DNA of 64,000 nucleotides. Source: Candidatus Omnitrophota bacterium (GTDB lineage Bacteria > Omnitrophota > Gorgyraeia > Zapsychrales > JAHFFX01). Within the stretch, counting starts at the first letter, position 1. Every line of letters starts with the position of its first letter. Shown one piece after another: positions 20,996 through 56,490 of the stretch. The stretch is from the NCBI GenBank assembly GCA_023247725.1, contig JAHFFW010000002.1, positions 160-64,159 of the forward strand. The letters are read 5' to 3'. The notes under the pieces are model-generated. The model saw only the letters and a list, made by a program, of their open reading frames with translations. It ran no database searches and was not told where the DNA came from. The translations under genes and the position numbers were made by a program.

Positions 20996-21028
20996 GTTTA
21001 AAGGCGAGCGAAGAAAGGCCTGCAGTTT

Positions 21029-28538: not shown

Positions 28539-28546
28539 AATGCAGA

Positions 28547-32588: not shown

Positions 32589-33593
32589 ATGATGCGATTA
32601 TCGCAAAAAGCCCAAACCATTCTCGAATACACCCTCCTCATCACTCTGGTTATCCTTGGGATTGTTGTCATGTCCCGCTATGTGATTTATTCCGTCAATG
32701 CCCATTTGAAGTCTTGGGACGATGCCGCCGAGGATGCAACGACTGATCCCATGATGAACTTTGATGATATAACCAGCCTGCCAGGTGTTGCCTGCACTTG
32801 CGGCAATTTTCTTCCGCAGGCCTGCGGTGTATCCACGTGTGCGCCGACCGAGATGTATTCTAAGAAATTTTGTACCCCCGCTGATTGCGGCTGTGTCAAT
32901 CCCGGTGATTGCGATCAATGTACAGCCGATCCTTCCTGCTGTACGAGAACGCCGAACGGAGGTTGTGGAGCTGGCGGTTGTGCCCCCACGGCTATTCTCA
33001 TGACCGTGACCTGCGGGACTAATCCGCCGTCTAATCAGTGTGAGGATTCGGAGACGTGTGGTCCTTTTAGCTGTCAGGGCCCGGTCCCTGCCAACGCAAC
33101 GCTTTGCCCAGGAGATAACACGGGTTTAACCAGCAATGACTTCAATAAAATTGTATCGGCATGCTCGGCGGCAAAATGCGAATACACCTGCGATGCCGGG
33201 TTCATCCTTGTTAATGGTGCGTGCGAGGAGGATACCGGCCCTTGCCCAGGGGGGCAAGTTCAATGTTGGTCTTGCAGCGCAGAGATTATTTTTAGCGAAG
33301 CGCCCAGCGGTTGTAGCGGTTTTAACGGTTGTGTGGGTAGAAACATCGTGGCGGTCATCGATCATATTTGCGCTGCCTGTCCAGCTCCTCCGACTTGTTC
33401 TTCTTGTGAAGGATTTTCGTTGGGTGGGGGATATATTGATGAAAATTTTGCTTGTTCGGCGGCCAGGACCGACGCTGAAACTCGCCCTTGTTCCGGGAGA
33501 AGTCAGCCGGTTCGGTGCGGATATGCCCAATATTCTGGAAATCCGGCTGATTGCATCTGCTCCTATACCTGTGAGAACTCCTGCGCTCGTTAA
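32589..33593 (+). CDS. Flp/TadE-like prepilin fused to a cysteine-rich extracellular domain
   Basis: 334 aa; N-terminal class-III-like prepilin signal (KAQTILEYTLLITLVILGIVVM) followed by about 250 aa containing about 50 Cys (CTCGNF..CGVSTC..CGCVNPGDCDQC..). Confidence 0.6.
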   Translation: MMRLSQKAQTILEYTLLITLVILGIVVMSRYVIYSVNAHLKSWDDAAEDATTDPMMNFDDITSLPGVACTCGNFLPQACGVSTCAPTEMYSKKFCTPADCGCVNPGDCDQCTADPSCCTRTPNGGCGAGGCAPTAILMTVTCGTNPPSNQCEDSETCGPFSCQGPVPANATLCPGDNTGLTSNDFNKIVSACSAAKCEYTCDAGFILVNGACEEDTGPCPGGQVQCWSCSAEIIFSEAPSGCSGFNGCVGRNIVAVIDHICAACPAPPTCSSCEGFSLGGGYIDENFACSAARTDAETRPCSGRSQPVRCGYAQYSGNPADCICSYTCENSCAR

Positions 33594-33685: not shown

Positions 33686-34696
33686 ATGTTAAGAAGGGAG
33701 AGAGTTTTGAATAAAGCCAAACAATGTTTAGGATTGTTGGTTCCTTTGGTATTTACGCTTGCCACCTTGTCTGGATGTGATCAGATTTCGTCATTCTTCA
33801 ATAAGTCCGGTTCCAAATCTAACCTCAATAAAGAAAAAATTTCTTCAACTCCCGTCGAGTCTACACCGGTCCCTTCCCTGGCACCTCCTTCCATAGATTC
33901 TAATGTGCCTTTACCTGCTGATGTGCTGGCCAGGGTGGGCAATTGGACCCTCACGGCTAAAGATTTTGAAGAGCGCCTTAAGGGGCTTAAAGAAGTCTTC
34001 CCTGACTTCGATGTGAATGTTCCGGAAAATAAGCGGTTGATTTTAGAAGAATTGGTTCGCCAACAATTGCTAGTCAGGGAAGCGGAAGAGACTGGAGCTG
34101 CCAAAAAGAAGGAGATTGTGGATGCCGTGGAAGAATTTCGCCGGTCCCTCCTGGTTCGGGACGCGGCCACGAAATTGACCGAAGGCATCAAGGTGACGGA
34201 TTTGGAGGCGCAGGAATTTTATAACCAAAATAAAGACAACCCGGCATTAACCGAACCGGCGGAATATCATTTGCGCGAAATTGTGATGTCCACTCAGTCG
34301 GGCGCTAAAGAAGTTCTCGTCGATCTTTTAAAAGGAGCGGATTTTGCGGAGATGGCCAAGGCTCGCTCCAAAGGAAAAACGGCAGCCAATGGCGGGGACT
34401 TGGGGACGGTGAAGACTTTCGAATTTCCGCAAATGGAGGCGGCGGTGGCCTCGTTGGAAGCGGGAGATATTAGCAATGTATTCAAAGGGCCCAGCGGAGA
34501 TTACTACATCGTTAAGGTGGAAGAAAAAAAGGGTGGCAAACAAAAGGATTTTGCTGCCGTCAAAGAGGACATCATTACCTTTTTAACTCAATCCAAGCAG
34601 CAATCTGTGATTGAAAGCCACCTGAAAGAATTGCAACAAAAATATGGGGCAAAGATCAATGAAAATTTCTTGTCCGATAAAGGAGTAAAACCATGA
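33686..34696 (+). CDS. parvulin-type peptidyl-prolyl isomerase lipoprotein (SurA/PrsA-like)
   Basis: 336 aa; lipobox LATLSGC; PpiC domain (GGDLGTVKTFEFPQMEAAVASLEAGDISNVFKGPSGDYYIV). Confidence 0.75.
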   Translation: MLRRERVLNKAKQCLGLLVPLVFTLATLSGCDQISSFFNKSGSKSNLNKEKISSTPVESTPVPSLAPPSIDSNVPLPADVLARVGNWTLTAKDFEERLKGLKEVFPDFDVNVPENKRLILEELVRQQLLVREAEETGAAKKKEIVDAVEEFRRSLLVRDAATKLTEGIKVTDLEAQEFYNQNKDNPALTEPAEYHLREIVMSTQSGAKEVLVDLLKGADFAEMAKARSKGKTAANGGDLGTVKTFEFPQMEAAVASLEAGDISNVFKGPSGDYYIVKVEEKKGGKQKDFAAVKEDIITFLTQSKQQSVIESHLKELQQKYGAKINENFLSDKGVKP

Positions 34697-35514
34697 ATAC
34701 CGATGATAAGAAAAAACTAGGTGTGATTATCCTTGCCGTGAGTGCCGGTATTGTGGCGTCGATTTTGGCCGGTAATTACATCAAGCAAAGTGTTCAGGAA
34801 CAAACGGCCTCGCTCGCCAAGGAATACGAAAAAAAGCGCAAGCAAGAAATGGATGCCCTGAGGCAGGATTACGAGCGTTTTAAAATGGAGACCGCTCAAG
34901 CCATTGCCCAGCAGCAGCAATTGGCGGCGACCTTCAGAGAGCAAGCGGGAAGCGCAAAAAATCAGCAAGTGATTACGCCCGCCCAACAGGCCTCGCTGGC
35001 GATTAAGACTCCGCCGGGAAAAAGAGCCATTACGATCCAATTGGATTCTTTATCGGCAGTTGGAGGAATGATTGGCGCTGGCGATTTTGTGGATGTCTTG
35101 GCTCATTTGAATGTGCCCAATCCTGCGGAGCCCGCAGCTAAAGAAACCGTGACCGTGATGGTTTTCCAAAATATTGAAGTTTTGGCCGTTGGAACAAGCC
35201 TGCAGTCGGTTCCCGGCCAGTATCCCTTGCAGCAACAGTCGACTAATCTGAATGTCACCTTCGCGGTTGAACCAGAGGAAACTGGTTTACTGACCTTCGC
35301 CCAAAGAAATGGAAAACTGCAGTTAGTTCTGCGCTCGCCCCAAGAATTGGAAACGCGCATGCTGCAGGCCGCGAATTGGCAAACGCTCTCCGATTATGTT
35401 TTAGAAAAACAGGGAACCGATATCAGCGCTCCTAAATCCAAGGCTTTGATCGAACCCGCTGCCGAGGAGGTCAAACCCTTTATTCAAATCTTCCGGGGAG
35501 GAAAGTCATTATAA
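34693..35514 (+). CDS. cpaB: Flp pilus assembly protein CpaB/RcpC
   Basis: 273 aa; N-terminal TM, then SAF/RcpC-like beta domain (GDFVDVLAHL...VFQNIEVLAVG); start overlaps the PPIase stop. Confidence 0.75.
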   Translation: MNTDDKKKLGVIILAVSAGIVASILAGNYIKQSVQEQTASLAKEYEKKRKQEMDALRQDYERFKMETAQAIAQQQQLAATFREQAGSAKNQQVITPAQQASLAIKTPPGKRAITIQLDSLSAVGGMIGAGDFVDVLAHLNVPNPAEPAAKETVTVMVFQNIEVLAVGTSLQSVPGQYPLQQQSTNLNVTFAVEPEETGLLTFAQRNGKLQLVLRSPQELETRMLQAANWQTLSDYVLEKQGTDISAPKSKALIEPAAEEVKPFIQIFRGGKSL

Positions 35515-35526
35515 TCGTTAGGAGTC

Positions 35527-37839
35527 ATGGTCATGGAAATTATGCTTAGACAGTCGAGAAGAATCGTTTTTTGCATCAGCCTCTTAGCATTATCTGCATG
35601 GTTGGTTTCTTCATCCGCATTGTTTGCTCAAGATCCCATCGATCCAGGACCGACGCCGGAAAAATCGGTGGAGCAAACCGGCGGCATGGTCGCTAGAGAT
35701 GTCAAGAACAACGAAGATATTTACATCATACGGGGCGATTTGGAAGCCATTAAGGTTTATGCCTTGACGAGGATCTCGGTTACGAATCCGGAAATTGCCG
35801 ACATAGCCAACGTCGATAGCAATCAGGTTTTAATGTTGGCTAAAAAGTCGGGACGAACGACCCTGATTATTTGGGATGAGTATGGAAAGCGTTCGATTCT
35901 TATTCATGTGTTTGAAGAAGATTTGGACTTGGTTTATCGTCGTTTAAGTCAGATGTTAGAAACCCTGCGCATTGAAGGGGTGAGTTTGGAAATTAATAAA
36001 ACCGAAGGCAAGGTCGTAGCGACGGGTCGGATTCCTCCCGAAAAAAAGGCGGAATTTGAAAAGGCTCTGGATCCTTATTCGGCCAGTGTTCTCAATTTGG
36101 TTAAAACCTCGCCGGTGGATGATTTGATTCAAATTGATATCCAAATTGCGGAGTTAAATCAAACCCTCAGCAAATCGATCGGGATTGAATGGAATAGTGC
36201 CGTGACCTACGCGGAAAGAAACTTCGTAGCCAATGCGGCGCGAGATATTTTTAAAGTAGGGCCTTTAAGTCGTACAACTCAGATTATCGCCACGGTCAAT
36301 GCCTTAATTACGGAAGGCAAAGGTCGTATTCTTTCTAAGCCTAAACTCGTCGTGATTAATGGCAAGGAGGCGAGTTTCCAGGTCGGAGGGGAGATTCCGA
36401 TTTCCACAACCACGACGACATCCGGCGGCAACGTCCAGCAAAATATCGAATTTAAGGAATATGGCATCACCCTGACCGTTAAACCCACGATCCGCGACGG
36501 GAAAGTCGATGTGATTTTGACGGTGGAGGTCAGCGACATTGATGAGGCTAATGCGGTAGGACAAAATGTGGCGTTTACAACCCGCAATGCTCAAACCCAA
36601 ATCCTTTTGGATAATGGTCAGACGGTGGTTATTGCGGGTTTGATTAAGCAACAGGGAGGCGAGGAGATCAGAAAGGTTCCTTTCCTCGGCGACATTCCCA
36701 TTGTTGGGATGGTATTCCGTAAGCGTAGAACGCCCACCCTTAATCAGGACACGGAATTGGTTATTTCTTTAACGCCAACGATTATTCCCCAAAGAGAGTC
36801 CACCCGGAGTGTTGCCAAAAAGGTTGTTGAAACGCCAACAGAGGCGGGGCCAGGAAAACCAGAATTAATGGAAATCTCTCAAGGTTCTACCGAAACACCG
36901 GCCGAATCCACGGGAACGTCCGGTACCGTGAAAGAGAATACAGATGCGCCGTCGGCGAGCGTGGGAGAGACTCCCCCAAAAATGGAACCTTCTGTCCAGG
37001 CTCCGGCGCCTTCTGCACAAGTGACTCAACCCTCGACGGCAATGACCGAGCCTGCGCCGGAAAAGACCGCCCCGGTTGCTAATGAAAATGCTCCCGCGCT
37101 TGGGAAGATACAGGAGCCATCACCCGAAGGAGAGAAGGCTTCTGAGGTTGCCGCCGTCTCGGAAGAAGCCACCAAGGTTCCGGCCGAGATGGCTCCTTAC
37201 ATTCAGTCCATCCAGAAAAAAATTTCTGAATCCGTCGCTTATCCTTATGAAGCCAAAGAAAAAGGTTGGGAGGGGACGGTGAAATTGGCCTTGCATATTT
37301 TAAGAGATGGAACTTTAGCCGATGTCACGGTCAAGGAGTCATCTGGATATGAGATTTTTGATAATGATGCTTTGAATACAGCTCAAATTTTAGCTCCTTA
37401 TGCCGCTTTTCCGACGGGAATGAAGTTGGAAGAATTGATTGTCACGATTCCAATTGTTTACAGTCAGAAGGCGGCATTGCAAGAAGGAGTTTGCGAACCC
37501 AGCGTTCAAGTAGACGACAATGCCGCTGCAAGGGTTTTTCTTCCCGGTGGAATGGCTTATTCCGAGATGATCCAGAAGCGGCTTGCTGAGTCCATTGTTT
37601 ATCCAGAAGAGGCAAGGGAAAACGGCTGGGAAGGGACGGTCAAATTGACCCTGCAAATCCTTCGCGACGGAACCCTAGCCTATGCCTCCGTGAAAGAATC
37701 TTCCGGTTACCAGCTATTTGATGAATGCGCATTAAAGACAGCCAAAAGCCTGGCACCTTACTCTGAATTTCCTACCGAATCTGAACTTCAGGAAGTCAAT
37801 CTCACGGTTCCGATTGTCTACAGCCTCAAACATAATTAG
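35527..37839 (+). CDS. cpaC: Tad secretin RcpA/CpaC with C-terminal tandem TonB_C domains
   Basis: 770 aa; signal peptide; CpaC N-domain; secretin domain (…GKEASFQVGGEIPIS…VPFLGDIPIVGMVFRKRR…); Pro/Ala/Thr/Glu-rich linker; two TonB C-terminal-like domains (…YPYEAKEKGWEGTVKLALHILRDGTLADVTVKESSGYEIFDNDAL… and …YPEEARENGWEGTVKLTLQILRDGTLAYASVKESSGYQLFDECAL…). Confidence 0.8.
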   Translation: MVMEIMLRQSRRIVFCISLLALSAWLVSSSALFAQDPIDPGPTPEKSVEQTGGMVARDVKNNEDIYIIRGDLEAIKVYALTRISVTNPEIADIANVDSNQVLMLAKKSGRTTLIIWDEYGKRSILIHVFEEDLDLVYRRLSQMLETLRIEGVSLEINKTEGKVVATGRIPPEKKAEFEKALDPYSASVLNLVKTSPVDDLIQIDIQIAELNQTLSKSIGIEWNSAVTYAERNFVANAARDIFKVGPLSRTTQIIATVNALITEGKGRILSKPKLVVINGKEASFQVGGEIPISTTTTTSGGNVQQNIEFKEYGITLTVKPTIRDGKVDVILTVEVSDIDEANAVGQNVAFTTRNAQTQILLDNGQTVVIAGLIKQQGGEEIRKVPFLGDIPIVGMVFRKRRTPTLNQDTELVISLTPTIIPQRESTRSVAKKVVETPTEAGPGKPELMEISQGSTETPAESTGTSGTVKENTDAPSASVGETPPKMEPSVQAPAPSAQVTQPSTAMTEPAPEKTAPVANENAPALGKIQEPSPEGEKASEVAAVSEEATKVPAEMAPYIQSIQKKISESVAYPYEAKEKGWEGTVKLALHILRDGTLADVTVKESSGYEIFDNDALNTAQILAPYAAFPTGMKLEELIVTIPIVYSQKAALQEGVCEPSVQVDDNAAARVFLPGGMAYSEMIQKRLAESIVYPEEARENGWEGTVKLTLQILRDGTLAYASVKESSGYQLFDECALKTAKSLAPYSEFPTESELQEVNLTVPIVYSLKHN

Positions 37840-37863: not shown

Positions 37864-40029
37864 ATGGATTCTCGGACAATCACGATTTTTAGCAATAAGG
37901 GTGGTGTCGGTAAGACCTTTGTTACGGTTAATTTGGCTACGACCTTGGCGCTTAATGGAAAGCGCGTTTTCCTTTTGGACATGGATTTTCAGGCGGTCCA
38001 AGATATGGCGCGCATGCTTAATTTGGCCCCGCGTTATGCCGTCGTGGATATGCTGCGCGACGTCGAGGAATCGTCCGACCCGAACATCATCAAAAAATAT
38101 GTGATCTCTCATTCCAGTGGCTTGGATTTTTTGCCCGCCGTTATTCACACCAAGCAGATCGGCCACATCACTCCAGATAACATCAAACCGTTTTTAAAAA
38201 AAGCCGCTCAGGCCTACGATTATATCGTCATTGATGCAGGCAAGGCCTTTAGTGAGACCCTCATAACGGTCCTGGACTATTCCAACTTAATTTTTTTAGT
38301 CGCAACCCCCGATATCCTGGCGGTCTACCAGATCCGTTGGGCCATGGAGGTCTTACAAAGCCTGCACTTCCCTTTGAAGATGGTGAAACTTATTCTCAAT
38401 AGAGCCGAAAGTCGAGGTGGTGTGGCATGGCAGGAAGTGCGTTCAGCCTTGACTTGTGAAATCTTTTCTCGAATTCCGTCGGATGGAAGGGCCGTTGGGA
38501 TGGCGCTGAACCGCGGAATCCCTCTGGTGATCGACAGTCCCAAAAGTCTAGTGGCCGATTCCTTTAATGCTATGATCCGGGATTTGTCCAGGGACGGGAT
38601 GTTTGTTCAGGCAACGGAAGTTGCGAAGTTAAGGACGACGGAGGATTTGGTCAAACCCGGCGAGTTTTGGGAAAAATTTGGTGTTTCTTCCGGTGCAGCT
38701 AAGGCGGGAGTCTATGCCGGCTATTCGGCGGAAGAAGATGAAATTATAAAATTGAAGAAAAAGATACATGAAAAGCTCGTCGATCGGCTTGATATCAAGG
38801 ATCTTTCCGCCGAGGCATTGAGTAATCCCCAGCAATTTGCCAAGATTAAACAAAATGCGGAAAAAATTGTCAGCAACCTTCTCACCGAAGAGGCTGGGGC
38901 CATGATTTCCTCTCATGAAGAACGTGCCCGGATGGTCAAAGAGGTGGTTAATGAAGCCTTGGGGTTGGGCGCGATCGAAGAATTCCTCGCTGATCCGGAA
39001 GTCACCGATATCATGGTCAATAATAAGGAAGAGATTTACATCGAGAAAAATGGCAAATTGATTTTAACGAATAAACGGTTTGTTTCTGAAACTCAAGTGA
39101 GAACTGTTATTGATCGGATTGTCGCGCCTTTAGGTCGACGGATTGATGAATCAGTTCCCATGGTGGATGCGCGTCTGCCCGATGGATCTCGGATCAATGC
39201 GGTGATCCGGCCTATTTCCCTCAACGGCCCGATGATCACCATCCGTAAATTCAGCACTGAGCGTTTGACCGTTGAAGATCTCCTTCTCAAATATAAAAGT
39301 TTGTCGGAACCGATGGGAGAGTTTTTAAATGCTTGTGTATTAGGGCGCAAGAACATCATTGTTTCGGGAGGAACTGGCGCGGGGAAAACCACGCTTTTAA
39401 ATGTTATTTCGTTGTTTATTCCTGATGGAGAAAGAATTATTACAATCGAAGATGCTGCGGAGCTTAGGCTTAAGGCCCATAGTCATTGGGGCCGCATGGA
39501 ATCCCGGGTGCCCAATGTAGAGGGGAAAGGCGCGATTACCATTCGCGATTTATTTATTAATTGCTTGAGAATGCGCCCGGATCGCATCATCATCGGTGAA
39601 TGCCGCGGGGCTGAGGTCATGGACATGCTTCAAGCCATGAACACGGGTCACGACGGCTCCTTAACGACCGTACACGCGAACTCAACTAGAGATGTATTGG
39701 TGCGCTTGTGTTCTATGATGCTTTTATCCGGCATTGATCTCCCTTTACGGGCTATGCACGAGATGATTGCCTCGGCTATTCACCTCATTGTCCATGTGGC
39801 AAGATTCTCCGATGGGACTCGTAAAATTACTGGTATTACCGAAGTGGCTGGCTTGGCAGAAGGGTATCAGCTCAATCTTAAGGATGTTTTTACTTTTGAC
39901 CGCCAAGGGATTGACAACGAAGGGCGCGTGATCGGTCAATATAGGGCCACGGGTTATATCCCCACTGGTTATCAGGATCTCGTAGCGCGCGGAATTCCCC
40001 TCGACAAAGCCATTTTTACTCCCAGATAA
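37864..40029 (+). CDS. fused TadZ/CpaE-like (MinD/ParA ATPase) - TadA/CpaF (secretion ATPase) protein
   Basis: 721 aa; N-terminal deviant Walker A SNKGGVGKTF plus MinD-like fold; C-terminal CpaF N-domain and core (GGTGAGKTTLLN, ...IIIGECRGAEVMDMLQAMNTGHDGSLTTVHANS). Confidence 0.8.
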   Translation: MDSRTITIFSNKGGVGKTFVTVNLATTLALNGKRVFLLDMDFQAVQDMARMLNLAPRYAVVDMLRDVEESSDPNIIKKYVISHSSGLDFLPAVIHTKQIGHITPDNIKPFLKKAAQAYDYIVIDAGKAFSETLITVLDYSNLIFLVATPDILAVYQIRWAMEVLQSLHFPLKMVKLILNRAESRGGVAWQEVRSALTCEIFSRIPSDGRAVGMALNRGIPLVIDSPKSLVADSFNAMIRDLSRDGMFVQATEVAKLRTTEDLVKPGEFWEKFGVSSGAAKAGVYAGYSAEEDEIIKLKKKIHEKLVDRLDIKDLSAEALSNPQQFAKIKQNAEKIVSNLLTEEAGAMISSHEERARMVKEVVNEALGLGAIEEFLADPEVTDIMVNNKEEIYIEKNGKLILTNKRFVSETQVRTVIDRIVAPLGRRIDESVPMVDARLPDGSRINAVIRPISLNGPMITIRKFSTERLTVEDLLLKYKSLSEPMGEFLNACVLGRKNIIVSGGTGAGKTTLLNVISLFIPDGERIITIEDAAELRLKAHSHWGRMESRVPNVEGKGAITIRDLFINCLRMRPDRIIIGECRGAEVMDMLQAMNTGHDGSLTTVHANSTRDVLVRLCSMMLLSGIDLPLRAMHEMIASAIHLIVHVARFSDGTRKITGITEVAGLAEGYQLNLKDVFTFDRQGIDNEGRVIGQYRATGYIPTGYQDLVARGIPLDKAIFTPR

Positions 40030-40032: not shown

Positions 40033-40386
40033 TTGGCTATCCTCAATCTTACCCGCAACACCATCCTCAGTACAAAAGTAACGATTGCTCAGACAACCTC
40101 TCAACGGATGCAAGGGCTGCTTGGTCGTAAATCCATGGGGCTTGATGAGGCCTTAGTCATTTTCCACTGCCAAGCCATCCACATGTTTTTTATGAATTTT
40201 TCAATCGACGTGATTTTTGTGGGTAAGGAAAATCGGGTGGTTGGATTGGTGGAAAATATTCAGCCGTTTCATCTAAGCCCTATTTTTTGGCGTGCCGATA
40301 AAGCCATCGAAGTAGCCCCGGGCACAATCAAGTCGTCTTTAACCTCTCTTTTTGATCTTCTCGTCATCGAAGGTCAAGCCAACTAA
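40033..40386 (+). CDS. DUF192 family protein
   Basis: 117 aa; starts 4 nt after the ATPase gene. Confidence 0.55.
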   Translation: MAILNLTRNTILSTKVTIAQTTSQRMQGLLGRKSMGLDEALVIFHCQAIHMFFMNFSIDVIFVGKENRVVGLVENIQPFHLSPIFWRADKAIEVAPGTIKSSLTSLFDLLVIEGQAN

Positions 40387-40782: not shown

Positions 40783-42720
40783 ATGGGCGTTGTCCATAAA
40801 CTAAGACAAGAGGTGGTTGATTTTATTATCACCTTAAAAAAAGAAAACCCTTCACACAGTTGCCGGGGGCTCGTCGGCCTAATCCAGCAAAGATTTCAAA
40901 TTGAGGTTTCCAAATCATCGGTTAATGCAGTCATTAAAGGGGCCCAATTGAGCAGTTCTATTGGAAGAAAATTGGGCTCCGGAAAAAAGCAAAATAAATT
41001 TAAAATTCCAATAGAAAAAAAACAACAACTCTTTTCAATTGATGTCAAAAAAATACCATCGTCTCCATCAGAATTCCCTGTTTCATTCCCTTCCCCCACC
41101 CCAGACATAAAAGAAGTTACCCATTTAAGTGCAGAAACCGTTAATGAAGGAATTTTTTTAAAAGCACCAGCATCAGAGCAAGAAATTGAAAAATACGTTG
41201 CTAAAACCGACGCTCCTTCAAAAAAAGCAAAACAAGGAGCAGCAATTACAAAAGGTGTTAAGACTCAAAAAGAATTTTTTCCGACGGAGAAGAAGGATGG
41301 AAAAGGGTTCACTGCGATTGAACAGATTGAACGCTATGAGAGTCCAATGCCGACCGCTTTGCCAGATAATAATAATTCGTCGGTCAGAATGGCCGAACCT
41401 TTATTCGACTGCATGGGAAGCATTTTTTTGCGAGCGGCAGAATGGGAATTAGGCGTCTCATCGATTTGGGGACCCTTATTGAGTAAATTTATTCCACGCA
41501 TCAATACGGATATCCACACTTTAAGTAGTTTGCTTCTTTATTCCAGATTATTTGGTATTGAAGAGCCAGATAAAATTGACAATTATCCGCAATCAGAGAT
41601 TTGCTCCCTTTTAGGCATAAAGAACGGGATTGATGCTCATGACTTCTTTATAGTTTTAAAAGAGATTGAAAACAATGCTTCCCTGAGATTAGGACTGACT
41701 ATGGAACGAATACAACTTTTTTCAGAAGTGAATTTTTTGAAGCTCCAATTAGAGGACGGAAGAGAAGTCTTTTTGGATGCTCAGATGCATTCCATTTGGA
41801 ATCAGGATATACCGCCTCAATTTTGTTGCCCTTCAAATAAAATAATGTCCATTCTAATGAGCAAAATAATTGATAATGTCCAATCTGTAATAATTCAAAA
41901 AATTCCTGAGGACGCCAATTCATCCCATTTTTCGGATTTTATACAAGGTTTTGAAAATTTCCCCGGAAAACGAATTAAGACAATTATCCTGTATGATTCC
42001 CAAAAGCGCGAATTTGCCAATTTTCCTTATTTGCTGAACAAAAGAAGACATTTTATCATTGGATTGTGGCCATGGCAAAAAGAGTTTGCCCAATTGTCGC
42101 AAAGTTTGGAAGAAAAATCGCCGATAACAATGATGAATGAAAAATTCTTTTATGATGTGAAGGAATTAAATTTGATCACGCAAATGGGGCAACCTTTGTC
42201 CAGCTTGCGAGTATTTTGTTTGTATTCGACTCAATCTGATTCCCCTTTCCTCGCCGTTGCCACCAATATTCTCGACGATAAAAATAAGCCGGAAAAAATC
42301 ATATCGGAATATTGCAGCCGCTGGCCAAATTGGCAATGGGAACCGGAGTTGTTTATTCCTCGCGCGATCTCGGCTGAGCCCTCTCTCAATCTTGAAGAGG
42401 AATTAAACCTGAAATCTTCGCAGCAATATGAACAGTCGAACTTAAAGGCAATTCAACAGCTATTGCTTAACGATTTGAATACACACTGCAAAAAATATTT
42501 TTTCCCTCCTTATTACGCCGATTTGGGATTCGATGAACTTAATCGCCGATTTTATCAAATAAAAGGTTCTTTACAGCAAAGTCAAAACCAATTGAAAATT
42601 AAACTGATTCCTCCGAAGAGCTTTCCATATCATCAGGATCTCATGTGGGCAGCTAAAAGGCTCAATGAAAGTGCGATCGTGAGCCCAGAGGGGTTAGCTC
42701 TAACCATCTCAGTCAATTGA
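40783..42720 (+). CDS. hypothetical 645-aa protein with N-terminal transposase-like HTH
   Basis: N-terminus (LRQEVVDFIITLKKENPSHSCRGLVGLIQQRFQIEVSKSSVNAVIK) resembles transposase/homeodomain-like HTH; the remainder is unassignable; AT-rich and unrelated to the surrounding Tad genes. Confidence 0.4.
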   Translation: MGVVHKLRQEVVDFIITLKKENPSHSCRGLVGLIQQRFQIEVSKSSVNAVIKGAQLSSSIGRKLGSGKKQNKFKIPIEKKQQLFSIDVKKIPSSPSEFPVSFPSPTPDIKEVTHLSAETVNEGIFLKAPASEQEIEKYVAKTDAPSKKAKQGAAITKGVKTQKEFFPTEKKDGKGFTAIEQIERYESPMPTALPDNNNSSVRMAEPLFDCMGSIFLRAAEWELGVSSIWGPLLSKFIPRINTDIHTLSSLLLYSRLFGIEEPDKIDNYPQSEICSLLGIKNGIDAHDFFIVLKEIENNASLRLGLTMERIQLFSEVNFLKLQLEDGREVFLDAQMHSIWNQDIPPQFCCPSNKIMSILMSKIIDNVQSVIIQKIPEDANSSHFSDFIQGFENFPGKRIKTIILYDSQKREFANFPYLLNKRRHFIIGLWPWQKEFAQLSQSLEEKSPITMMNEKFFYDVKELNLITQMGQPLSSLRVFCLYSTQSDSPFLAVATNILDDKNKPEKIISEYCSRWPNWQWEPELFIPRAISAEPSLNLEEELNLKSSQQYEQSNLKAIQQLLLNDLNTHCKKYFFPPYYADLGFDELNRRFYQIKGSLQQSQNQLKIKLIPPKSFPYHQDLMWAAKRLNESAIVSPEGLALTISVN

Positions 42721-43667: not shown

Positions 43668-44015
43668 ATGTTTAGAAAATTGATGCGAATTAAAAAAGGA
43701 CAGACGACCGCCGAATATGCGCTGCTGATCGCATTGGTTGTGGCGGCGATTATTGCCATGCAGACATATGCCCAACGGACCTTGCAAGGCAGGATCCGGG
43801 ATGCTTCACAGTATCTCGTTAATGGGACTAGTGAGTTGGGAAACACGACTCATTATGAACCTTATTATCTGCAGACCGACTACGGCATCAGACGCAATGT
43901 GACGGACAATACCCGGTTAGGACTTAACCAGGTCGCCTATGACGAGGTTTCCAACCGCGTCAGGGAAACCTCGGGTTTTCAGTCGTCCGAGTATAGAGGG
44001 ATCAATGCCGAATAA
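43668..44015 (+). CDS. Flp/TadE-like pilin
   Basis: KKGQTTAEYALLIALVVAAIIAM prepilin motif; 115 aa. Confidence 0.6.
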   Translation: MFRKLMRIKKGQTTAEYALLIALVVAAIIAMQTYAQRTLQGRIRDASQYLVNGTSELGNTTHYEPYYLQTDYGIRRNVTDNTRLGLNQVAYDEVSNRVRETSGFQSSEYRGINAE

Positions 44016-44063
44016 TTCCCTGGTACGATTTTCAACTGTCATTTGTGATAAGGAGGACATTAA

Positions 44064-44390
44064 ATGTTCAAATACATAAGGAAGATTAAAGGGCAGAGCA
44101 CTCTCGAGTTCGCCATTTTAATCGTCATTATTATCGGTGCACTGTTGGCCATTCAGGTCTACATTAAAAGAGGGATTCAGGGCCGGTTGCGCAGTGCCGC
44201 CGATGATATCGGTGATCAATTCTCCCCAGGAAATACCAATTACACGAAAACCACCGTGACGAAAAGCAGCACAAAAGACACCTTCAAGAGCGGTGTTACC
44301 AACTCTTCGTTGCGGTCGGACGAAACAACCGATGTTTCTATGAATCAGAACATCAATAACACCGAGCAGGAATTCTGGGGTGGCAGGTAA
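44064..44390 (+). CDS. Flp/TadE-like pilin
   Basis: KIKGQSTLEFAILIVIIIGALLAI; 108 aa. Confidence 0.6.
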   Translation: MFKYIRKIKGQSTLEFAILIVIIIGALLAIQVYIKRGIQGRLRSAADDIGDQFSPGNTNYTKTTVTKSSTKDTFKSGVTNSSLRSDETTDVSMNQNINNTEQEFWGGR

Positions 44391-44411
44391 TCCGAATGGC
44401 GCAAATCCAAC

Positions 44412-44447
44412 ATGGCTTACTCGAGAGATTTTTCTCGGGTAAGCCAT
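44412..44447 (+). terminator. intra-operon hairpin (attenuator/terminator) after the fourth pilin gene
   Basis: atggcttactcgaga-gatttt-tctcgggtaagccat: a 15-bp stem with one mismatch. Confidence 0.4.
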
Positions 44448-44505
44448 GTTTCATTATGGCACATAATTTTTAGAGGACTAGGTAGGATTCAACTTTATCA
44501 AAAAA

Positions 44506-44864
44506 TGGACCCGGTCAAAAAAACCAAAAAGGCGCAAATCATCGGTGAATATGCCGTTACTTTTTTTGTCGTGACCAGCGTCATTATTGCCATGTCTGTT
44601 TTTATGATTCGGGTGTTTCAGGCCCGGATCTTCGATGCCCGGCGCTATATGGTCAACACCGTCAAGAGTGCTCCGCACATCGGAAAAATCAGATTAGAGT
44701 ATGAGCCCTATTATACGAATACCGACACCTTGACCGACCGGACAAGCTCGGAGGAAAAAAGTCTTCTCGAAGGAGGCCATACCGGAATCTTTCGAAAAGT
44801 TTGGGATGATCATACCGCGGCGCAAACCACGAGCGAACAGCGACCACCCAAAGATGCTGATTAA
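44506..44864 (+). CDS. Flp/TadE-like pilin
   Basis: Start moved to the Met of MDPVKKTKKAQIIGEYAVTFFVVTSVIIAM (listed ORF starts at 44412, inside the hairpin). Confidence 0.5.
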
Positions 44865-44891
44865 GTGTGATCAGTAAAGTGCGGTGGAACA

Positions 44892-45236
44892 ATGCGAAGA
44901 CATCTCCAGAAACAAAATCAAGCGCAAAACCTTTCCGAGTACGTCATTGTTCTCGGACTGGTGACGGCGGTGTTTTTTGCCCTAGGGCCACTTTTTCGCC
45001 GGGGCACTCAGGCAGTGATTAAACTAACGGCTGATCAGATCGGAAATCAGGTCAATGCAGAACAGCGAGTGACTCCTCGAAGCGGTTATTTGGAAAGTTT
45101 ATATACAACGACTCGATCTGCGCAAAATAATAATACGAACGAATCTTTAGGCGTTCTGACCTATACTTACGGTGAATCGGAAGGCGCCTCATCGGATTCG
45201 ATGGTGAATCTGGGTTTCACAAACAGGTACGAATGA
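44892..45236 (+). CDS. Flp/TadE-like pilin
   Basis: NQAQNLSEYVIVLGLVTAVFFAL; 114 aa. Confidence 0.5.
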   Translation: MRRHLQKQNQAQNLSEYVIVLGLVTAVFFALGPLFRRGTQAVIKLTADQIGNQVNAEQRVTPRSGYLESLYTTTRSAQNNNTNESLGVLTYTYGESEGASSDSMVNLGFTNRYE

Positions 45237-45544
45237 TGTTGAAAAATAAAGGTCAATCAACCCTGGAGTATGTCGTCCTTATCATTGTGGTCATGGGAGC
45301 GCTCATTGCGACGAGTGATTATGTGAAACGGGCCATTCAAGGACGTTGGAAAACCTCCGTCGACGATTTGGGGGACCAATACGATCCGGCGTACGCCAAC
45401 TCAACGATCACTCATGCAACAAACGGCACCTCCATTACCAGTATCACCACCATCAATGCGACTGGCGGTTTTTGGACGAAACGACTGGATTCCTCTAATA
45501 TGGAAGAGTCCAAGGCGGGATTTACGGCGATCGGGGCCTATTGA
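45233..45544 (+). CDS. Flp/TadE-like pilin
   Basis: MMLKNKGQSTLEYVVLIIVVMGALIA; start overlaps the previous stop. Confidence 0.6.
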   Translation: MMLKNKGQSTLEYVVLIIVVMGALIATSDYVKRAIQGRWKTSVDDLGDQYDPAYANSTITHATNGTSITSITTINATGGFWTKRLDSSNMEESKAGFTAIGAY

Positions 45545-45718: not shown

Positions 45719-47353
45719 ATGGGGAACAAAAATAGAATACAATTTTCGGAAAAGGCCCAGACGGCCATGGAACTGGCCGTTTTCGGAAGTATTTTCGTTT
45801 TCATTTTGGGAGCCATGATCCGAGCCTCGGTTAACAATAGTTTCACCCAAAACGAATACTTAAGAGCCCTGCGCCTGGCGATGCAAAGGTCCTTCGAGTC
45901 TTCGACGAGCAGTTTTGATGATAATACGGGTGACATGTCCCGCGCCACCGCCAGTTTGGCTTTTATCGAAGACCGCACCTCTCCTGATGCCAACAAATAT
46001 GGGTCTTTGACGCGCAATCCTTATGTAGTCAGCGTCTCTGCCTCTTTTTCCAAGAATCTTTTTAAGACGATGGATTATGGGGACAAGCCAGATCTCCCCA
46101 TCGAAGACATGTTCATTAATGGACAGCATTTTACATTTTCGATTGCGGGTTATCGTTGGTATATTGTTGCCCAAAGCAATTCGCAACCCAACGCCGCAAA
46201 ATATACAGATCCACTCGGGACCTCGGTTTGGGTTCCCATTCCCCCCAACAGTCCTTTCGGTCCCGGGGTTAGTGATTGGAGTAACGGCTGTGGAAAATTA
46301 GGAGCCGCCTCGGCGGATGGCGGATGTCGCCGTTTTTATGTGCTGGTGGCCAATGGACGGACCGCCGTCAGCAGTTCTGAACCCAGTAGTACACAGCCGG
46401 CATTTTGTTCGGCCGATCCCTGCCAATGCGCCGGGGGGTCTTGTGACACGACGTGCCAGAACCGAAAAAATAACTGTGAAGCGGGGTGTCCTCCGGCCGG
46501 AGATCTTTATCGAGCCACCTGTCTTTTTGGTTGTCAGTTGGGAATGGCTGTTTGTGTGCAATATAACCCCAACAATGATTTGACCGCGGCTCAACGCTTT
46601 GATTTGAACAGGGACGGCATTGTGGATGTGACTGATCCCGGGTTGCGTTCCCTCTTTTCCTGGCAATGGAATACGGTTTATGCCAATACGATTGAAATCA
46701 ATCTGGAAGTGGGCGACAATACTACGGTCGATGTCGACGGGGATCTGAAAGAAGAGCAGATCCTGGAGATGATTGATAATGCCGGACGGATTTATAAGCC
46801 CGATGATGAAGCCAATGGAAAAAGCAAAGCAAAGATCAAGGCTCCGATTCGAGCGGTCAAGGTCCTGGATTTTAATCAAGGGGACTTTGATATGAGCGAT
46901 CCACCGGGACAGGCCGATCCTCCGGTCGGTCCCGGACCCTTAAACCCTCCCCCTCCCCGTTCTGGATTAAAAGAAGAAATGATCATGTACACCTATACAA
47001 GGGAAGGGACGTATTTGCAAATTCGCGAGGGCAAGCTTTTTAATCCCGAGAGCGAAACCACGGTTCGCAGTTGGCAGAAACGCGATCAGGTGGATGTGAT
47101 CGAGCGGCAGATTCAGTTAAGCACGGACACGGGGCGTTTTTGTGAAAATGATCCCGGTTGGGAACAAAATCCGGTGAAAAGACACACAGGGCGTCCTAGT
47201 GCTACTAACCCGGCGGTGGAGGCCTGTAACGACTGTTACAGTGCGGCCAATATTTATAAAACCTGTTTTGACGAAACCTCGCTTATGCTTTATGTCCGCA
47301 GCCGGATTCAAGATCGTCGGGGCCGTCACTGGATTACGGATGTTTCGCCATGA
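45719..47353 (+). CDS. large pilin-like protein with Cys-rich region and dockerin/TSP3-like Ca-binding loop
   Basis: 544 aa; N-terminal SEKAQTAMELAVFGSIFVFILGAMI prepilin-like segment; Cys cluster (CSADPCQCAGGSCDTTCQNRKNNCEAGCPPAGDLYRATCLFGCQLGMAVC); DLNRDGIVDVTD loop (46601-46636). Confidence 0.6.
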   Translation: MGNKNRIQFSEKAQTAMELAVFGSIFVFILGAMIRASVNNSFTQNEYLRALRLAMQRSFESSTSSFDDNTGDMSRATASLAFIEDRTSPDANKYGSLTRNPYVVSVSASFSKNLFKTMDYGDKPDLPIEDMFINGQHFTFSIAGYRWYIVAQSNSQPNAAKYTDPLGTSVWVPIPPNSPFGPGVSDWSNGCGKLGAASADGGCRRFYVLVANGRTAVSSSEPSSTQPAFCSADPCQCAGGSCDTTCQNRKNNCEAGCPPAGDLYRATCLFGCQLGMAVCVQYNPNNDLTAAQRFDLNRDGIVDVTDPGLRSLFSWQWNTVYANTIEINLEVGDNTTVDVDGDLKEEQILEMIDNAGRIYKPDDEANGKSKAKIKAPIRAVKVLDFNQGDFDMSDPPGQADPPVGPGPLNPPPPRSGLKEEMIMYTYTREGTYLQIREGKLFNPESETTVRSWQKRDQVDVIERQIQLSTDTGRFCENDPGWEQNPVKRHTGRPSATNPAVEACNDCYSAANIYKTCFDETSLMLYVRSRIQDRRGRHWITDVSP

Positions 47354-47709
47354 AAATGAAACGATGGCTAGCGACAAAATCGGTTCCTCTCACCCCGGGG
47401 GTGAGAGTGCCCTTCTCTCACCCCCGGGGTGAGAGGGTGGCTCGAAGGCGGCCACGGTCAGCCCAGGTCACCATTGAATTTGCTTTTTGCTTGATCATTG
47501 TGGCGGTCCTGGTCTATGGTTTAGTCCGGGCTTTCCGTTGGGCCGGATTGGATCTGGCCGAGCGAAGGGCCAAGGCCGATGAGTCCATTATGGCGCCGAT
47601 TGATGAAGATTGGCAACCTCCGGATAAGTTCAAAACTGGTCCGCCGGCGCAGCTGAAGACCACTTATTACCGAACGAATAAAATGGGCCTGGTTTTCAAT
47701 AATTGGTAA
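47350..47709 (+). CDS. tadE: TadE-like pseudopilin
   Basis: RSAQVTIEFAFCLIIVAVLVYGL is a TadE/TadG-type N-terminal motif. The ATG at 47350 overlaps the upstream stop, and an alternative GTG start lies at 47437, just after two palindromes. Confidence 0.55.
   Translation: MKMKRWLATKSVPLTPGVRVPFSHPRGERVARRRPRSAQVTIEFAFCLIIVAVLVYGLVRAFRWAGLDLAERRAKADESIMAPIDEDWQPPDKFKTGPPAQLKTTYYRTNKMGLVFNNW
47387..47435. repeat. two tandem copies of a 21-nt palindrome
   Basis: ctctcaccccgggggtgagag (47387-47407) and ctctcacccccggggtgagag (47415-47435), 7-nt spacer; inside the leader-coding part of the tadE-like ORF. Confidence 0.6.
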
Positions 47710-47812: not shown

Positions 47813-50800
47813 TTGATTCGTTTTCTCCATAAGATTTTTGCAAAATTTTCCCGCACCAAACTCCGTTCCGGAGGGCAGGTGGCCGTGATCCTCATCTTGA
47901 TTACGGCCATTGCCCTTATTCTTTACGCCGTGGTTTTAAATCTGGGCCGAATTTCCACCCACAAAACCCTCGTCACGATGGCTTCTTCCGTCGGCACGAG
48001 TTTCCTTGCCTCGGAAATGGCCAGTTACGCCGAGTCCATGTACCAGGTTCAATTGGGCGGAGAAAAGGGAGCGAAGGATGATACCAGCGTTTGTGCCTTC
48101 ACCGGTTGGTTTGCTGCCCTCATCAAGGTTGCTCTGGTGGTTGCGGCCCTGGTCATCATCATTGTTACGCACGGATCAGGTTGGATGATTGCGATGGCCA
48201 TCATTGGTTTGGTCGTGGCTGGCATTGGTGCTTTTATGCAGATCGCCTTTATCCAGCCCGGGATCACCAAACTCTGGAACAAACAGATGGCCGATATGTC
48301 CGAGCCGGATAATTTTGTCGAGTCGGGCATTCGCACCGCCTTGCAGGCCGTCGTGACGGACAACGAATATGTCCCGGATGTCTATGATCAGGATCTGGAT
48401 CGAAAAACCTTTGCCGCCGACGGAGATAAGATCAACCGTTTTGCGTATTATTACACGGACCGGTTGAGCCGGCACCCTAGTAACGATCCCCGGGTTGCCC
48501 GCGAATTTCAAAAAGATTTGCGCCGGCTTTTGATCACCCTGTATCTTCCGGCCGATTGCTCCGATCCCAGCAACCCGAGTGCCCATCCCTGCTGTTTTGA
48601 TCCGGCCAATAATTGGAAAGTTTTGCCGTCCTATTGCAATCAATGCTGTGTCTTTAGTGATCTGGACACTCGGATTGATCCCAACACAGGAACCTTTGTC
48701 AAAGACGAATTTGGCCGGCGGCTTTACAAAAATACTGCCCGGCCGCAGTGTTGTTATGATCCTTTGAACGAGCCCGGCGGAGCCGGGACTCGCGCCGCCC
48801 CTGACACTTATTATTGCGGCACAACCGAGACTTGTGGAAACTTGAACGGAAATGACAAGGATCCTTTTAATGCCGCAACGCACCCGGTTGCGGCTGATCC
48901 CAATGATTTGCGTTGGATTTATGATCCTTTTTGGGAAGATGAACGCAATTTTAACGTTTTATCCATGCGAGCCCGGATCGGCCGTGATGATGAAACCAAG
49001 ACCTATCGATTACCCTTTAAAGGAGGATACGATTTTCCGCCGACGATGACGCCGGATGCCCTGGGTGTTTCTCCCGGAGATATGTGGCGATTAAATGATA
49101 CCAAATATTGGGACTTAACGACTCCCATTACGACGGAGCTTCCCGACCTTAATATATTTCCCTTTCTGTACCGGTTGACCTGGGGAGTGGACCTGCGCGA
49201 TCGAACGGTATACGATGCAGAAATGACGCCCAATACCTGGCCCGTTGGGGAGCCGGAGAAGTGCCATTGGTACAATATGAATCAGTTTTTCGGTGGGGCC
49301 CCGTGTCCGCCTCCTTACAGTGACGATCCTGTGACTATGAACACCGCCGACCTGAAGGGTAATCTTCCCCTCGGGTATCCAGTTCAATTGTATCTTTCCC
49401 TTGACCCGGCGACCCTGACTTATACCAAGGCCGGGTGGGTGGAGGGGCTCGGCCAGGGCATGTGTCAGGGCTCCGCATGCGTTTCCGACAAAATTCTGAA
49501 TATCCCTGGTCTAATAACCAAGAACGATGATTGCGCTTTGGATGATGCGGCTCACCGAGATTGTGACCACGCCCTCGATCCTCCCTGGGATTGCATTCAA
49601 TATTATTCCTGGAAGCCCGGCGCGGATCGGTATTGCAATTTGAACTGGCCATACTTTGCGCGATGCGCCAAATATGGAGTTTGTTGTTTTGGCGATAGCG
49701 AGGTCGAATGTGACTGCGGCGATGGCGTTGGCGGCCCTAATTCTGCCCTGGTGGCCAGTTGTTCCGACGAAGTGCCCGGGAAATTAAGGTATATCAGTGC
49801 GCCGGACCCAGGCGATGCGTGGGCAGACGATCCGTTGGATGAATTTATTTATGGTTCCGGTGAATTTATCGCCTGGGCCAAGGCCATCGTTGAGAGTTCT
49901 CCTCAGAATTTAAACGAGAATCTGAGAAATTGGTACAGCGAAGCGGCGACCTGGATTGAACCGGGGTGTCCTCGTCCGCCTTGTTCCAGCGGTTTTGTGA
50001 ACCAATTGAATCCCGGCGCCTTGTTTCGATGGATTGATCAGTTTGATTCTTATCAAAGGAATCTGGCATTTTGGTTGGGAATGGAACGCCGCGCCGGTAG
50101 CCGTGACGAACTAGGTGATCTTTGCAACGAGGTCTGGTGTGTTCCCGGAAATCCGGATGGCAGCGTCGGAGACCCCACCGGAAAGGAGCTGCGCGATATT
50201 TGTGATGCGGCCTCCTGCCCCGCGATTTGTCCCGGCGTCAAAAAAGGAGGAACCGAAACCCTTCTGGGAGTGATCACCGACTACGTCGGAGAAGGCGCTC
50301 CGCGGCCGACGGGAAGTTTTTTTGGCGTCGATGCAGAGGGACTTCCCGCAGTGGGCAATCCCACCGGCGTGATCAATTGTTTGAATTTCAATGCCCTCGA
50401 CGGCGATGTGATTGATCCTTATACGGATCCATTTACCGGCCAAATTTTTTCCGATGCCAATGATCCTGCCAATGCCCTTTCGGGAAATTCCGCTAAATTC
50501 GTGCGGGCCTGGGAAACCTGCGATGAGACGACCACACTCATGCTGCCGCGCTCCTTGCTTCATCCCGACCGGAATTTTGACACCAATGAATTCGTGCCTC
50601 CGCATCATCCGAAAAAAAGGGTTGATCTCGGAGTCAATGGCCAGTATAGCGATCCGGAGTTTTTCAAAAAATGTTTGGACGATTGCAATCCGGGACCAGG
50701 TAGTGGAGACTGGGGGAAGTATTGTGAGCCAGCGACTGAGTATGGGGAGCCCACGCCTTTCCGCGGACCAGCGAAGGCAACGATTCCCACGTACCCGGTC

Positions 50801-53369: not shown

Positions 53370-54227
53370 ATGATTTTTATTATTATCGGAATGGTCTTTG
53401 GCGCCGTCGGGGTTCTTTGTTATGCGGCGGTTCCATTATTTTTGAATACCACGGTCGCCATTAGTCAGAGGCGGTCCCAAACGTTTGCCAATAAAATGCA
53501 GCGCGTGGTGATGAAGTCCGAAATTCAACGGATGTCGCAATTTTATGTGATCGCGCCGGTTCTGTTTGGCGCTCTTGGCTATTTTGTTTTACCTCCGGAG
53601 TTGAGGGTGATCGGTGTCGTGGTCGGCATCGTGCTCGGGTTCGTGGGCCCGAGCATCTACATCAAATTTTTGGTCAGACGCCGGAAGGATAAATTTAATC
53701 ACCAGCTCATCGATGCCTTGATGATCATGTCAAGTTCCTTTCGCGGGGGATTGAGTTTGATTCAGGCCATGGAGGCCGTCGTCGAGGAAATGCCCGACCC
53801 CATCAGCCAGGAAATTGGCACAGTTCTGAACGAAAATAAAATGGGTGTGTCTCTGGAAGAGGCCTTGAACCATTTGTATGAACGCATCCCTTCCCCGGCC
53901 CTGCAACAAACGATCACGGCCATTCTTTTGGCGAGGGAAACCGGGGGTAATCTGCCGGTTATTTTTTCCCGCATCGTCAATTCCATCCGGGAACACAATA
54001 AAATTCAGCAAAATATTGACACCTTGACTTTACAGGGAAAGATTCAGGGCTCGGTGATGAGTCTGTTGCCCATTGGTTTCGCTTTTATCGTTTATTCAAC
54101 TAACCCGAAATTTTTTGACAGCATGGTGAATACAGAAATGGGACGCATGCTCCTTGTCTATGCGGCGTTTTCGGAGTGCATCGGCGCTTACTTGATCTGG
54201 AAGATCAGTACGTTTAAGGATTTTTAA
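53370..54227 (+). CDS. tadB: Flp pilus assembly inner-membrane protein TadB
   Basis: 285 aa; T2SS-F domain (…ALMIMSSSFRGGLSLIQAMEAV…); polytopic membrane protein. Confidence 0.8.
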   Translation: MIFIIIGMVFGAVGVLCYAAVPLFLNTTVAISQRRSQTFANKMQRVVMKSEIQRMSQFYVIAPVLFGALGYFVLPPELRVIGVVVGIVLGFVGPSIYIKFLVRRRKDKFNHQLIDALMIMSSSFRGGLSLIQAMEAVVEEMPDPISQEIGTVLNENKMGVSLEEALNHLYERIPSPALQQTITAILLARETGGNLPVIFSRIVNSIREHNKIQQNIDTLTLQGKIQGSVMSLLPIGFAFIVYSTNPKFFDSMVNTEMGRMLLVYAAFSECIGAYLIWKISTFKDF

Positions 54228-56172: not shown

Positions 56173-56490
56173 TTCACTGCATCGCCCGAGGGATCTCTTT
56201 CGAAGGGCATTTCCGACGGGAAAAATGAGAAACCCTCCTCTTTAATTCAAAAGGCTTTTTGAATTCCAACTGTTTTACCAAGCTCATACAAAATTGAATC
56301 GACCCCATCAAAACAACCAGCCGCTTCACTTAATTTTTGATAATACTAATACTACTTTAATTGACTGTTTGTTTTCGATGGGGAATTTGATTCGCAGCTG
56401 GCTCATCCTCCGAGCCTCAATGGTTTTTTGTCCTTACCGAATAGAGCCCGTATAGTCCAATTTAGATTGGACAATAATGGGATTAGGTGG

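Follow-up and report, generated by a model that had tools for sequence, protein, structure and literature searches.

The subject of this report is a stretch of 64,000 nucleotides from a Candidatus Omnitrophota bacterium (contig JAHFFW010000002.1 of assembly GCA_023247725.1), hereafter called the window, to which all coordinates refer; features lie on the plus strand unless stated otherwise. The gene of interest, tadZA (37864..40029, the end coordinate including the stop codon), sits in a tad locus with rcpC, rcpA, tadB, tadC and Flp pilin genes. It is a single open reading frame (ORF) of 721 amino acids (aa) with an ATG start, and its frame runs without interruption across all 721 codons. The product carries on one chain a complete ParA/MinD-type nucleotide-binding domain and a complete TadA motor, with a flexible tether between them. 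This architecture is already known from Bdellovibrio; what is new is a member of it in another phylum.

The N-terminal domain, which we assign to the TadZ-type ParA/MinD ATPases, occupies aa 1-245 (37864..38598). The protein begins with MDSRTITIFSNKGGVGKTF, and reading of the sequence places a deviant Walker A motif, NKGGVGKT, at aa 11-18 (37894..37917), with the signature lysine K12 and the P-loop lysine K17. Switch I (D39/D41) and Walker B (D124) residues are present, and the string NKGGVGKTF is unchanged in 12 of the 12 closest Omnitrophota homologues aligned. Pfam detects AAA_31, CbiA and ParA at aa 4-240 (E 5.5e-17 to 5.6e-15). The archaeal and bacterial minD models of NCBIfam match aa 4-245 with 93 and 84 bits against cut-offs of 202 and 213; TIGR01968 gives 83.9 bits with a cut-off of 212.9, which leaves the protein outside the MinD family as that model defines it. 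An in-frame stop codon lies 8 codons upstream of the ATG, at most 19 open codons precede the Walker A motif, and rcpA ends 24 nucleotides before the start of tadZA; a receiver domain (ARD), which needs about 140 residues, is therefore not possible in this protein.

In the AlphaFold2 model (mean predicted local distance difference test score, pLDDT, of 83.9) TadZA consists of two well-folded modules separated by a disordered stretch, aa 258-290, which is the only part of the protein with pLDDT below 50. The MinD fold extends to about aa 245 (pLDDT 80-97 in the N-terminal domain), a short helix at aa 250-257 stands ahead of the disordered stretch, and the three-helix module NTD1 of the TadA part begins at about aa 287-290. 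From these boundaries the length of the linker is estimated as about 35-45 residues; as a feature it is given here as aa 246-290 (38599..38733). It is followed by the helical module NTD1 (aa 291-366, 38734..38961; helices 287-308, 316-343 and 351-366 in the model), by NTD2 with R437 and R443 (aa 367-478, 38962..39297) and by the catalytic CTD (aa 479-721, 39298..40026), which includes Walker A at G502-T510 (K508), the Asp-box E533, R569, the Walker B glutamate E579 and the His-box H604.

In the motor part Pfam reports T2SSE at aa 367-647 (E 1e-55), an NCBIfam model of the TadA family matches aa 328-658 with 321 bits, and the Foldseek comparison of the C-terminal part with the PDB returns Caulobacter CpaF (8rjf, 8rkd and 9e24; E about 5e-43, 41-43% identity). 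CpaF is the closest solved relative of this part (363 bits, 43% identity), and its three-helix NTD1 comprises residues 80-149 and is preceded by a disordered N-terminus that is dispensable for function (PMC11300603). In the HMMER alignment K508, E533, E579 and H604 correspond to K287, E312, E357 and H382 of CpaF, and R437, R443 and R569 to R217, R223 and R347; the catalytic roles of these seven CpaF residues were assigned in the same study (PMC11300603). All seven are invariant across alignment A1, which consists of TadZA and 39 full-length fused homologues (40 proteins). Judged by these alignments, aa 290-721 are a complete CpaF/TadA motor ATPase that keeps every catalytic residue. No T2SSE_N domain of the GspE type was found in TadZA; the N-terminal part of the motor is of the CpaF type, with NTD1 and NTD2.

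The first-pass annotation of this DNA had proposed a fusion of a TadZ-like domain and TadA in one polypeptide, a deviant Walker A with no receiver-like domain, and a complete CpaF N-domain plus core, and these proposals are borne out by the ORF, by the Pfam and NCBIfam domains and by the alignment to CpaF. Its domain boundaries need correction: the MinD domain had been ended at residue 190 and about 150 residues had been allotted to the linker, both of which the model revises. The set of domains that it expected from a scan was found as regards AAA_31/CbiA and T2SSE; T2SSE_N was absent, the CpaF-type modules being in its place.

The fused protein is not peculiar to one assembly. A protein search gave more than 115 distinct clusters at 90% identity, of 716-735 aa, that cover 99-100% of TadZA at 66-85% identity, and the alignments continue through the linker. 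These Omnitrophota-type clusters are drawn from NCBI, JGI, ENA and Logan assemblies, and those with names belong to Candidatus Omnitrophota or Omnitrophica. Farther away, the best 150 representatives at 50% identity include about 40 full-length proteins that are matched in a single stretch; their lengths are 692-944 aa, mostly 700-760.

A genome scan with TadZA gave matches spanning residues 2-720 in about 79 loci (L001-L079), among them loci of Massilia, Nitrosomonas, Acidobacteriaceae, Myxococcota and others; the name “uncultured Planctomycetales”, attached to some close loci in third-party assemblies, was treated as unreliable. We rejected the notion that all of these loci carry fusions, since ORF checking resolved about 50 of them into adjacent separate tadZ and tadA genes that tblastn had joined. 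True single-ORF fusions number 24 in 23 loci: a single uninterrupted two-domain ORF in each of 18 Omnitrophota-type loci, and 6 ORFs of other taxa, namely in L017 (Bdellovibrionales), L020 (labelled WWE3), L021 (Lysobacteraceae), L022 (Acidobacteria, two copies) and L027 (labelled Deltaproteobacteria). In all 24 the Walker A motif lies 10-22 residues from the nearest upstream ATG with at most 87 open codons upstream, so that none of them can have an ARD. The sequence GK[T/S] is kept in 19 of the 24. The two Acidobacteria copies (L022:971-3115 and L022:9998-12130, in a metagenome-assembled genome, MAG) lie 7 kb apart, and both have the Walker A motif KGGVGR[S/T].

The identity of the N-terminal domain was approached through structure and through sequence scores. 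The best Foldseek match is 3ea0, a ParA-family ATPase of Chlorobium tepidum (TM-score 0.91, root-mean-square deviation 2.0 Å, about 240 residues compared); next come FlhG, FleN and MinD, which share with our domain the fold and a deviant Walker A with the signature lysine. The protein in 3ea0, probably a TadZ fragment, was crystallised as a chain of its own, 245 residues long, and is 22-23% identical to the N-terminal domain of TadZA. In phmmer comparisons of aa 1-255 of TadZA, canonical TadZ proteins with an ARD give 47-107 bits over their ATPase domains; against PDB sequences the domain scores 67 bits with 3ea0 and at most 57.5 bits with any MinD. The entry 3ea0 likewise heads the PDB matches of the ATPase domain from a canonical TadZ of Massilia (115 bits versus 52 for MinD). 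For a Firmicutes-type TadZ (locus L028) the scores with MinD and with 3ea0 are about the same, and the match to 3fkq, the TadZ of E. rectale, is weak; TadZ is therefore a diverse family, for which sequence alone is a blunt tool. Taking the scores together with the position in the locus and the Walker A spacing, we regard TadZ ancestry as the best reading of the domain.

The linker deserves separate mention. The least conserved stretch of alignment A1 is aa 246-290. Within it lies a motif at aa 247-274 (38602..38685), FVQATEVAKLRTTEDLVKPGEFWEKFGV, which is conserved in the Omnitrophota homologues aligned, with the consensus F/YVQATE(I/V)AKLRTTEDL..KPGEFWEKFGI. It is kept in the Omnitrophota rows of A1 and is still recognisable in a 52%-identical representative (P0122). 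From more distant fused proteins it is missing, and several of these have low-complexity linkers (e.g., P0142, P0143 and P0150). The motif looks like a short linear motif that may serve for binding a partner. A membrane-targeting role of the MinD kind for the linker helix and the FW motif was considered and set aside; the motif is net acidic.

Two objections concern the fusion itself. Canonical separate tadZ and tadA genes share the Walker A spacing of the fusion and often the frame, so that a single base error in one assembly, by shifting the frame or removing a stop codon, could in principle have joined them. We assign this a negligible probability: the same architecture and length recur, linker included, in the more than 115 clusters, the ORFs are uninterrupted in the 18 Omnitrophota-type loci and in 6 cases elsewhere, and the linker motif is conserved at the protein level. 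The database search that the first-pass annotation had called for thus disposes of the frameshift artefact. The other objection is that the gene may be fused while the proteins are separate, if internal initiation or proteolysis of the linker yielded a TadZ-like protein and TadA in a stoichiometry that is not fixed. A disordered linker, as modelled, would be accessible to proteases, the disordered N-terminus of CpaF is dispensable (PMC11300603), and there is an in-frame TTG at codon 262 with GGAGG ahead of it. However, the spacer between GGAGG and TTG is merely 2 nucleotides, which is poor for initiation, codons 247-300 contain no ATG, and the nucleotides of the candidate internal start also encode the conserved peptide RTTEDL; in addition, full-length TadZA-msfGFP of B. 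bacteriovorus was seen by immunoblot (bioRxiv 10.64898/2026.07.08.737194). We therefore hold separate products to be very improbable; the fusion would impose a 1:1 stoichiometry of TadZ and TadA only as long as the chain remains whole in vivo.

A further objection accepts the fusion and disputes the origin of its N-terminal half: a MinD/ParA-type ATPase could have been recruited independently of TadZ for another job, e.g., ATP-dependent attachment to membrane, nucleoid or divisome. It is true that the domain carries the full MinD-type deviant Walker A KGGVGKT, that it is without an ARD, and that no NCBIfam models match it better than the minD models, archaeal (93 bits) and bacterial (84 bits). 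Moreover, the TadZ proteins of split loci that have a recognisable motif read KGGxG[A/T/V/C][T/S], the P-loop lysine missing in all but L028 (KGGIGKT). This last exception matters, because L028 encodes a canonical ARD-bearing TadZ and the presence of the lysine consequently does not rule TadZ out. KGGVGKT fits the loose TadZ consensus K/RGGxGx[S/T] quoted in bioRxiv 10.64898/2026.07.08.737194, but it retains the P-loop lysine, which is usually missing from the atypical motif. The minD scores remain far under the curated cut-offs, whereas the domain scores higher with TadZ ATPase domains than with MinD, and 3ea0 is the best solved-structure relative both of this domain and of a canonical TadZ. 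In the locus the domain stands where tadZ would be, with rcpA before it and the TadA module after it, and the Walker A spacing of the fusion is that of tadZ-tadA pairs. No min (minC/minE) or flagellar genes were seen adjoining tadZA, whose immediate neighbours are rcpA and a DUF192 gene, and unlike in MinD the C-terminus of the domain runs into TadA, so that a free C-terminal membrane-targeting helix is impossible. An independent recruitment appears to us unlikely, and we keep to TadZ ancestry.

Comparison with canonical loci suggests how the fusion may have arisen. In the loci of Aggregatibacter, Caulobacter and Pseudomonas, and in the split loci of the scan (L018 and L023-L079, except L027, which is fused), the same two functions follow rcpC-rcpA in the same order as in TadZA; there they are encoded by two genes, and TadZ begins with an ARD (about 140 aa) that precedes an atypical Walker A, KGGxG[A/T/V/C]T. 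The canonical order in the scan is rcpC-rcpA-tadZ-tadA-tadB-tadC, and the Omnitrophota order is PPIase-rcpC-rcpA-tadZA-DUF192 onward; since the two correspond, tadZA occupies exactly the slot of tadZ and tadA. The TadA protein of split loci has about 455 aa. The distance from one Walker A to the other is 472-496 aa in the fused proteins and mostly 484-497 aa in split pairs, and this equality suggests the loss of the intervening stop codon; the linker of the fusion would then be the tail of TadZ together with the disordered NTD0 of TadA. A neighbour-joining tree of the TadA parts (80 sequences from 79 loci) places all 24 fused ORFs in one clade, with split genes of Chloroflexi as its sister. 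The fusion most likely originated when the stop codon separating the two genes and the ARD were lost, in an ancestor that Bdellovibrionota-type systems have in common with this one or that was passed between them.

One protein outside the fused set is relevant here. The FHA-TadA of Collimonas (L067:9512-11371 and L068:9512-11371; 620 aa) also has a regulatory domain at the position of NTD0, on a TadA of the same clade; what is attached there is an FHA domain (Pfam E 2.4e-11), which binds phosphopeptides, and not a ParA/MinD ATPase as in TadZA. In the fused-type TadA clade the N-terminus seems to be a place where regulatory domains are readily added.

The first-pass annotation had stated that TadZ and TadA are separate in described tad loci, a premise that is out of date. 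A 2026 preprint (bioRxiv 10.64898/2026.07.08.737194) describes such a fusion, in which TadZ lacks the ARD and is joined to TadA by a flexible linker, for tad locus 1 of Bdellovibrio bacteriovorus HD100, and it credits the predicted fusion to an earlier paper, its reference 13. According to that preprint, depletion of the tadZA-tadB operon by CRISPR interference leads to severe predation defects (core Tad genes are called essential in a heading), the protein is localised dynamically with a bias to the invasive pole, and its TadZ region with the linker binds the polarity hub RomR. Seeded with the Bdellovibrionales protein of L017, our search recovered more than 115 clusters (714-730 aa) that share its domains; the named ones belong to Bdellovibrionales, Bdellovibrionia, Bdellovibrionota or Bdellovibrio sp., and one is labelled Xanthomonadaceae. 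TadZA aligns collinearly with MBI2712243.1 of Bdellovibrio sp. (aa 33-721, 38% identity, 9 gaps), which is a MAG protein and not that of HD100.

The Bdellovibrio-type fusion is thus similar to the Omnitrophota one in length (about 717-721 aa), in the order of an ARD-less TadZ, a linker and TadA, and in the clade of the latter, and the L017 protein keeps the P-loop lysine (KGGVGKS), as does TadZA. It differs in its setting, tadB standing directly downstream of tadZA in L017, L020, L021, L022 and L027, and a RomR partner is known for Bdellovibrio alone. As to earlier knowledge on the Omnitrophota side, Seymour et al. 2023 (PMC10066038) reported that TadB and TadC of Omnitrophota group with Bdellovibrionales homologues; the fusion is mentioned neither in the passages of that paper that were searched nor in a 2026 Omnitrophota genome preprint. 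In the literature searched we found no mention of the fusion in Omnitrophota, and no further paper with such a fusion.

Upstream of tadZA the locus contains a gene for a 334-aa protein (32589..33593), a PPIase gene (from 33686), rcpC/cpaB (34693..35514; Pfam RcpC E 5.4e-24, syntenic in related loci) and the secretin gene rcpA (35527..37839; Pfam Secretin E 7e-44, T2SS-T3SS_pil_N, and TonB_C with E 6e-37 in two C-terminal stretches). The rcpA ORF has the length seen in the window in L001-L005 alone, the closest Omnitrophota, and about 530-590 aa in more distant loci; the addition of TonB_C to RcpA therefore looks recent. Immediately downstream, 3 nucleotides past the tadZA stop codon, begins the DUF192 gene (40033..40386; Pfam E 4e-16), which has the same position in 15 of the 18 Omnitrophota-type loci. 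A DUF192 (COG1430) gene also stands downstream of tadC in many Acidobacteria, Chloroflexi and other loci (L023, L028, L032-L034, L041, L048, L050, L061, L070 and L073-L079), and we conclude that it is a recurrent tad-associated gene with no assigned role. Next is a gene for a 645-aa protein (40783..42720) with a helix-turn-helix-like N-terminus and no Pfam match. The gene is kept between DUF192 and the pilin genes in L001-L009, L011, L012 and L019, and its product may be a partner or a regulator of the pilus machinery.

Five tandem Flp-like prepilin genes follow (43668..45544; weak Class_IIIsignal and Flp_Fap matches, N-termini of the form G/Q-T-x-EY), syntenic in L001-L008 and L019. A simple scan for the motif G.GD[VIALF]K of TadV-type prepilin peptidases found none across the window; this recalls the TadV-less tad loci of Bdellovibrio. 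Beyond the prepilins lie genes for proteins of 544 aa (45719..47353), 119 aa (47350..47709) and 1724 aa (47813..52987), which share with the 334-aa protein a hydrophobic N-terminus resembling Flp, TadE and TadG. The 334-, 544- and 1724-aa proteins have large Cys-rich regions without Pfam matches. All four genes are syntenic in L001-L004 and the downstream three also in L007 and L019; their products may be minor-pilin or tip proteins. The locus continues with tadB (53370..54227; Pfam T2SSF E 2.5e-16) and tadC (54307..55203; T2SSF E 5.7e-14), 13 kb downstream of tadZA, and this gene order is common to the closer Omnitrophota loci.

Just downstream of tadC begins a giant ORF of at least 2545 aa (56365..63999, continuing past the window end) with Peptidase_C39 (aa 211-339) and hexapeptide repeats, which fits the giant proteins reported beside Omnitrophota pilus and secretion genes. 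At the other end of the window, parA/soj (12228..13040, minus strand) and, by position alone, a putative parB (11353..12216, minus strand) are found in a replication-origin neighbourhood (10035-23482), with dnaA (15621), dnaN (17109), gyrB (18518) and gyrA (21029) named by position, size and N-terminal sequence, and with a low-GC stretch and a sign change of the GC skew near 12-16 kb. About 17 kb separate dnaA from the start of the tad locus, and a similar position is reported for V. archaeovorus LiM (CP019384.1, 12382-29832). A DUF488 gene followed by a weak Dual-OB (DuOB) match (28014-29329) is unrelated to tadZA.

Our interpretation, which we consider probable, is that TadZA is the motor of an Omnitrophota Tad (type IVc) pilus locus in which tadZ and tadA have merged; this estimate includes the hexamer, TadZ-dimer and positioning roles set out here and the origin of the fusion proposed above. 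ParA/MinD ATPases form ATP-dependent sandwich dimers through the signature lysine. By analogy with Caulobacter, the TadA part would hexamerise under TadB/TadC and power the polymerisation of Flp pilin and probably its retraction. Each motor subunit would then bear one TadZ domain, and these domains could form ParA-style sandwich dimers dependent on ATP, possibly three per hexamer; a tether of 35-45 residues would be long enough to reach the adjacent subunit. The TadZ domain and the linker motif may bind a landmark or a component of the machine, whereby the motor would be delivered to the assembly site and retained there, a positioning role that would parallel the binding of RomR by the TadZ region and linker in Bdellovibrio.

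Several observations weigh against this interpretation or parts of it. The ARD and a Walker A lacking the P-loop lysine, both typical of canonical TadZ, are absent in TadZA, and on sequence alone the N-terminal domain could be named MinD-like, its best NCBIfam matches being minD models, albeit below their cut-offs. In the window tadZA is followed by the DUF192 gene and not by tadB, unlike in the Bdellovibrio-type loci, and no RomR-like partner was found in the window, the look being confined to the tad locus. The P-loop lysine or the entire motif is lost in 14 of 28 more distant fused representatives; the family as a whole therefore cannot be credited with ATP turnover by the TadZ domain. The neighbour-joining tree of TadA is without support values and samples 79 loci. 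For Omnitrophota we infer the hexamer, the dimerisation of the TadZ domains, the partner and the localisation alike.

A more specific proposal can be made for the Omnitrophota clade. Walker A keeps both of its lysines throughout this clade, where Switch I and Walker B do not vary either, and on this account the TadZ module may be a catalytically competent ParA-type switch, whose ATP-dependent dimerisation between adjacent subunits of the hexamer, read out through the linker motif, would gate the activity or direction of the motor on contact with a host. We regard this as a speculative addition and rather doubtful; if it is true, an ultra-small cell would have a bifunctional pilus motor with a built-in regulator.

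We believe that the observation is of use in several respects. Fused proteins are variously annotated as “MinD”, “CpaF” or “T2SS/T4P/T4SS ATPase”, so that a search for tadZ that relies on gene names or on a KEGG orthologue may overlook the fusion. The “atypical” TadZA of one model predator turns out to belong to a broad family of at least about 40 clusters at 50% identity, and its natural variants, with an intact or degenerate Walker A and with a conserved or low-complexity linker, would be useful for probing the role of the fused ParA-like module. For the Omnitrophota, which are uncultured, ultra-small and putatively predatory or parasitic, the shared TadZA extends the prior grouping of their TadB and TadC with those of Bdellovibrionales and ties their Tad system to the Bdellovibrio type by a distinctive common architecture.

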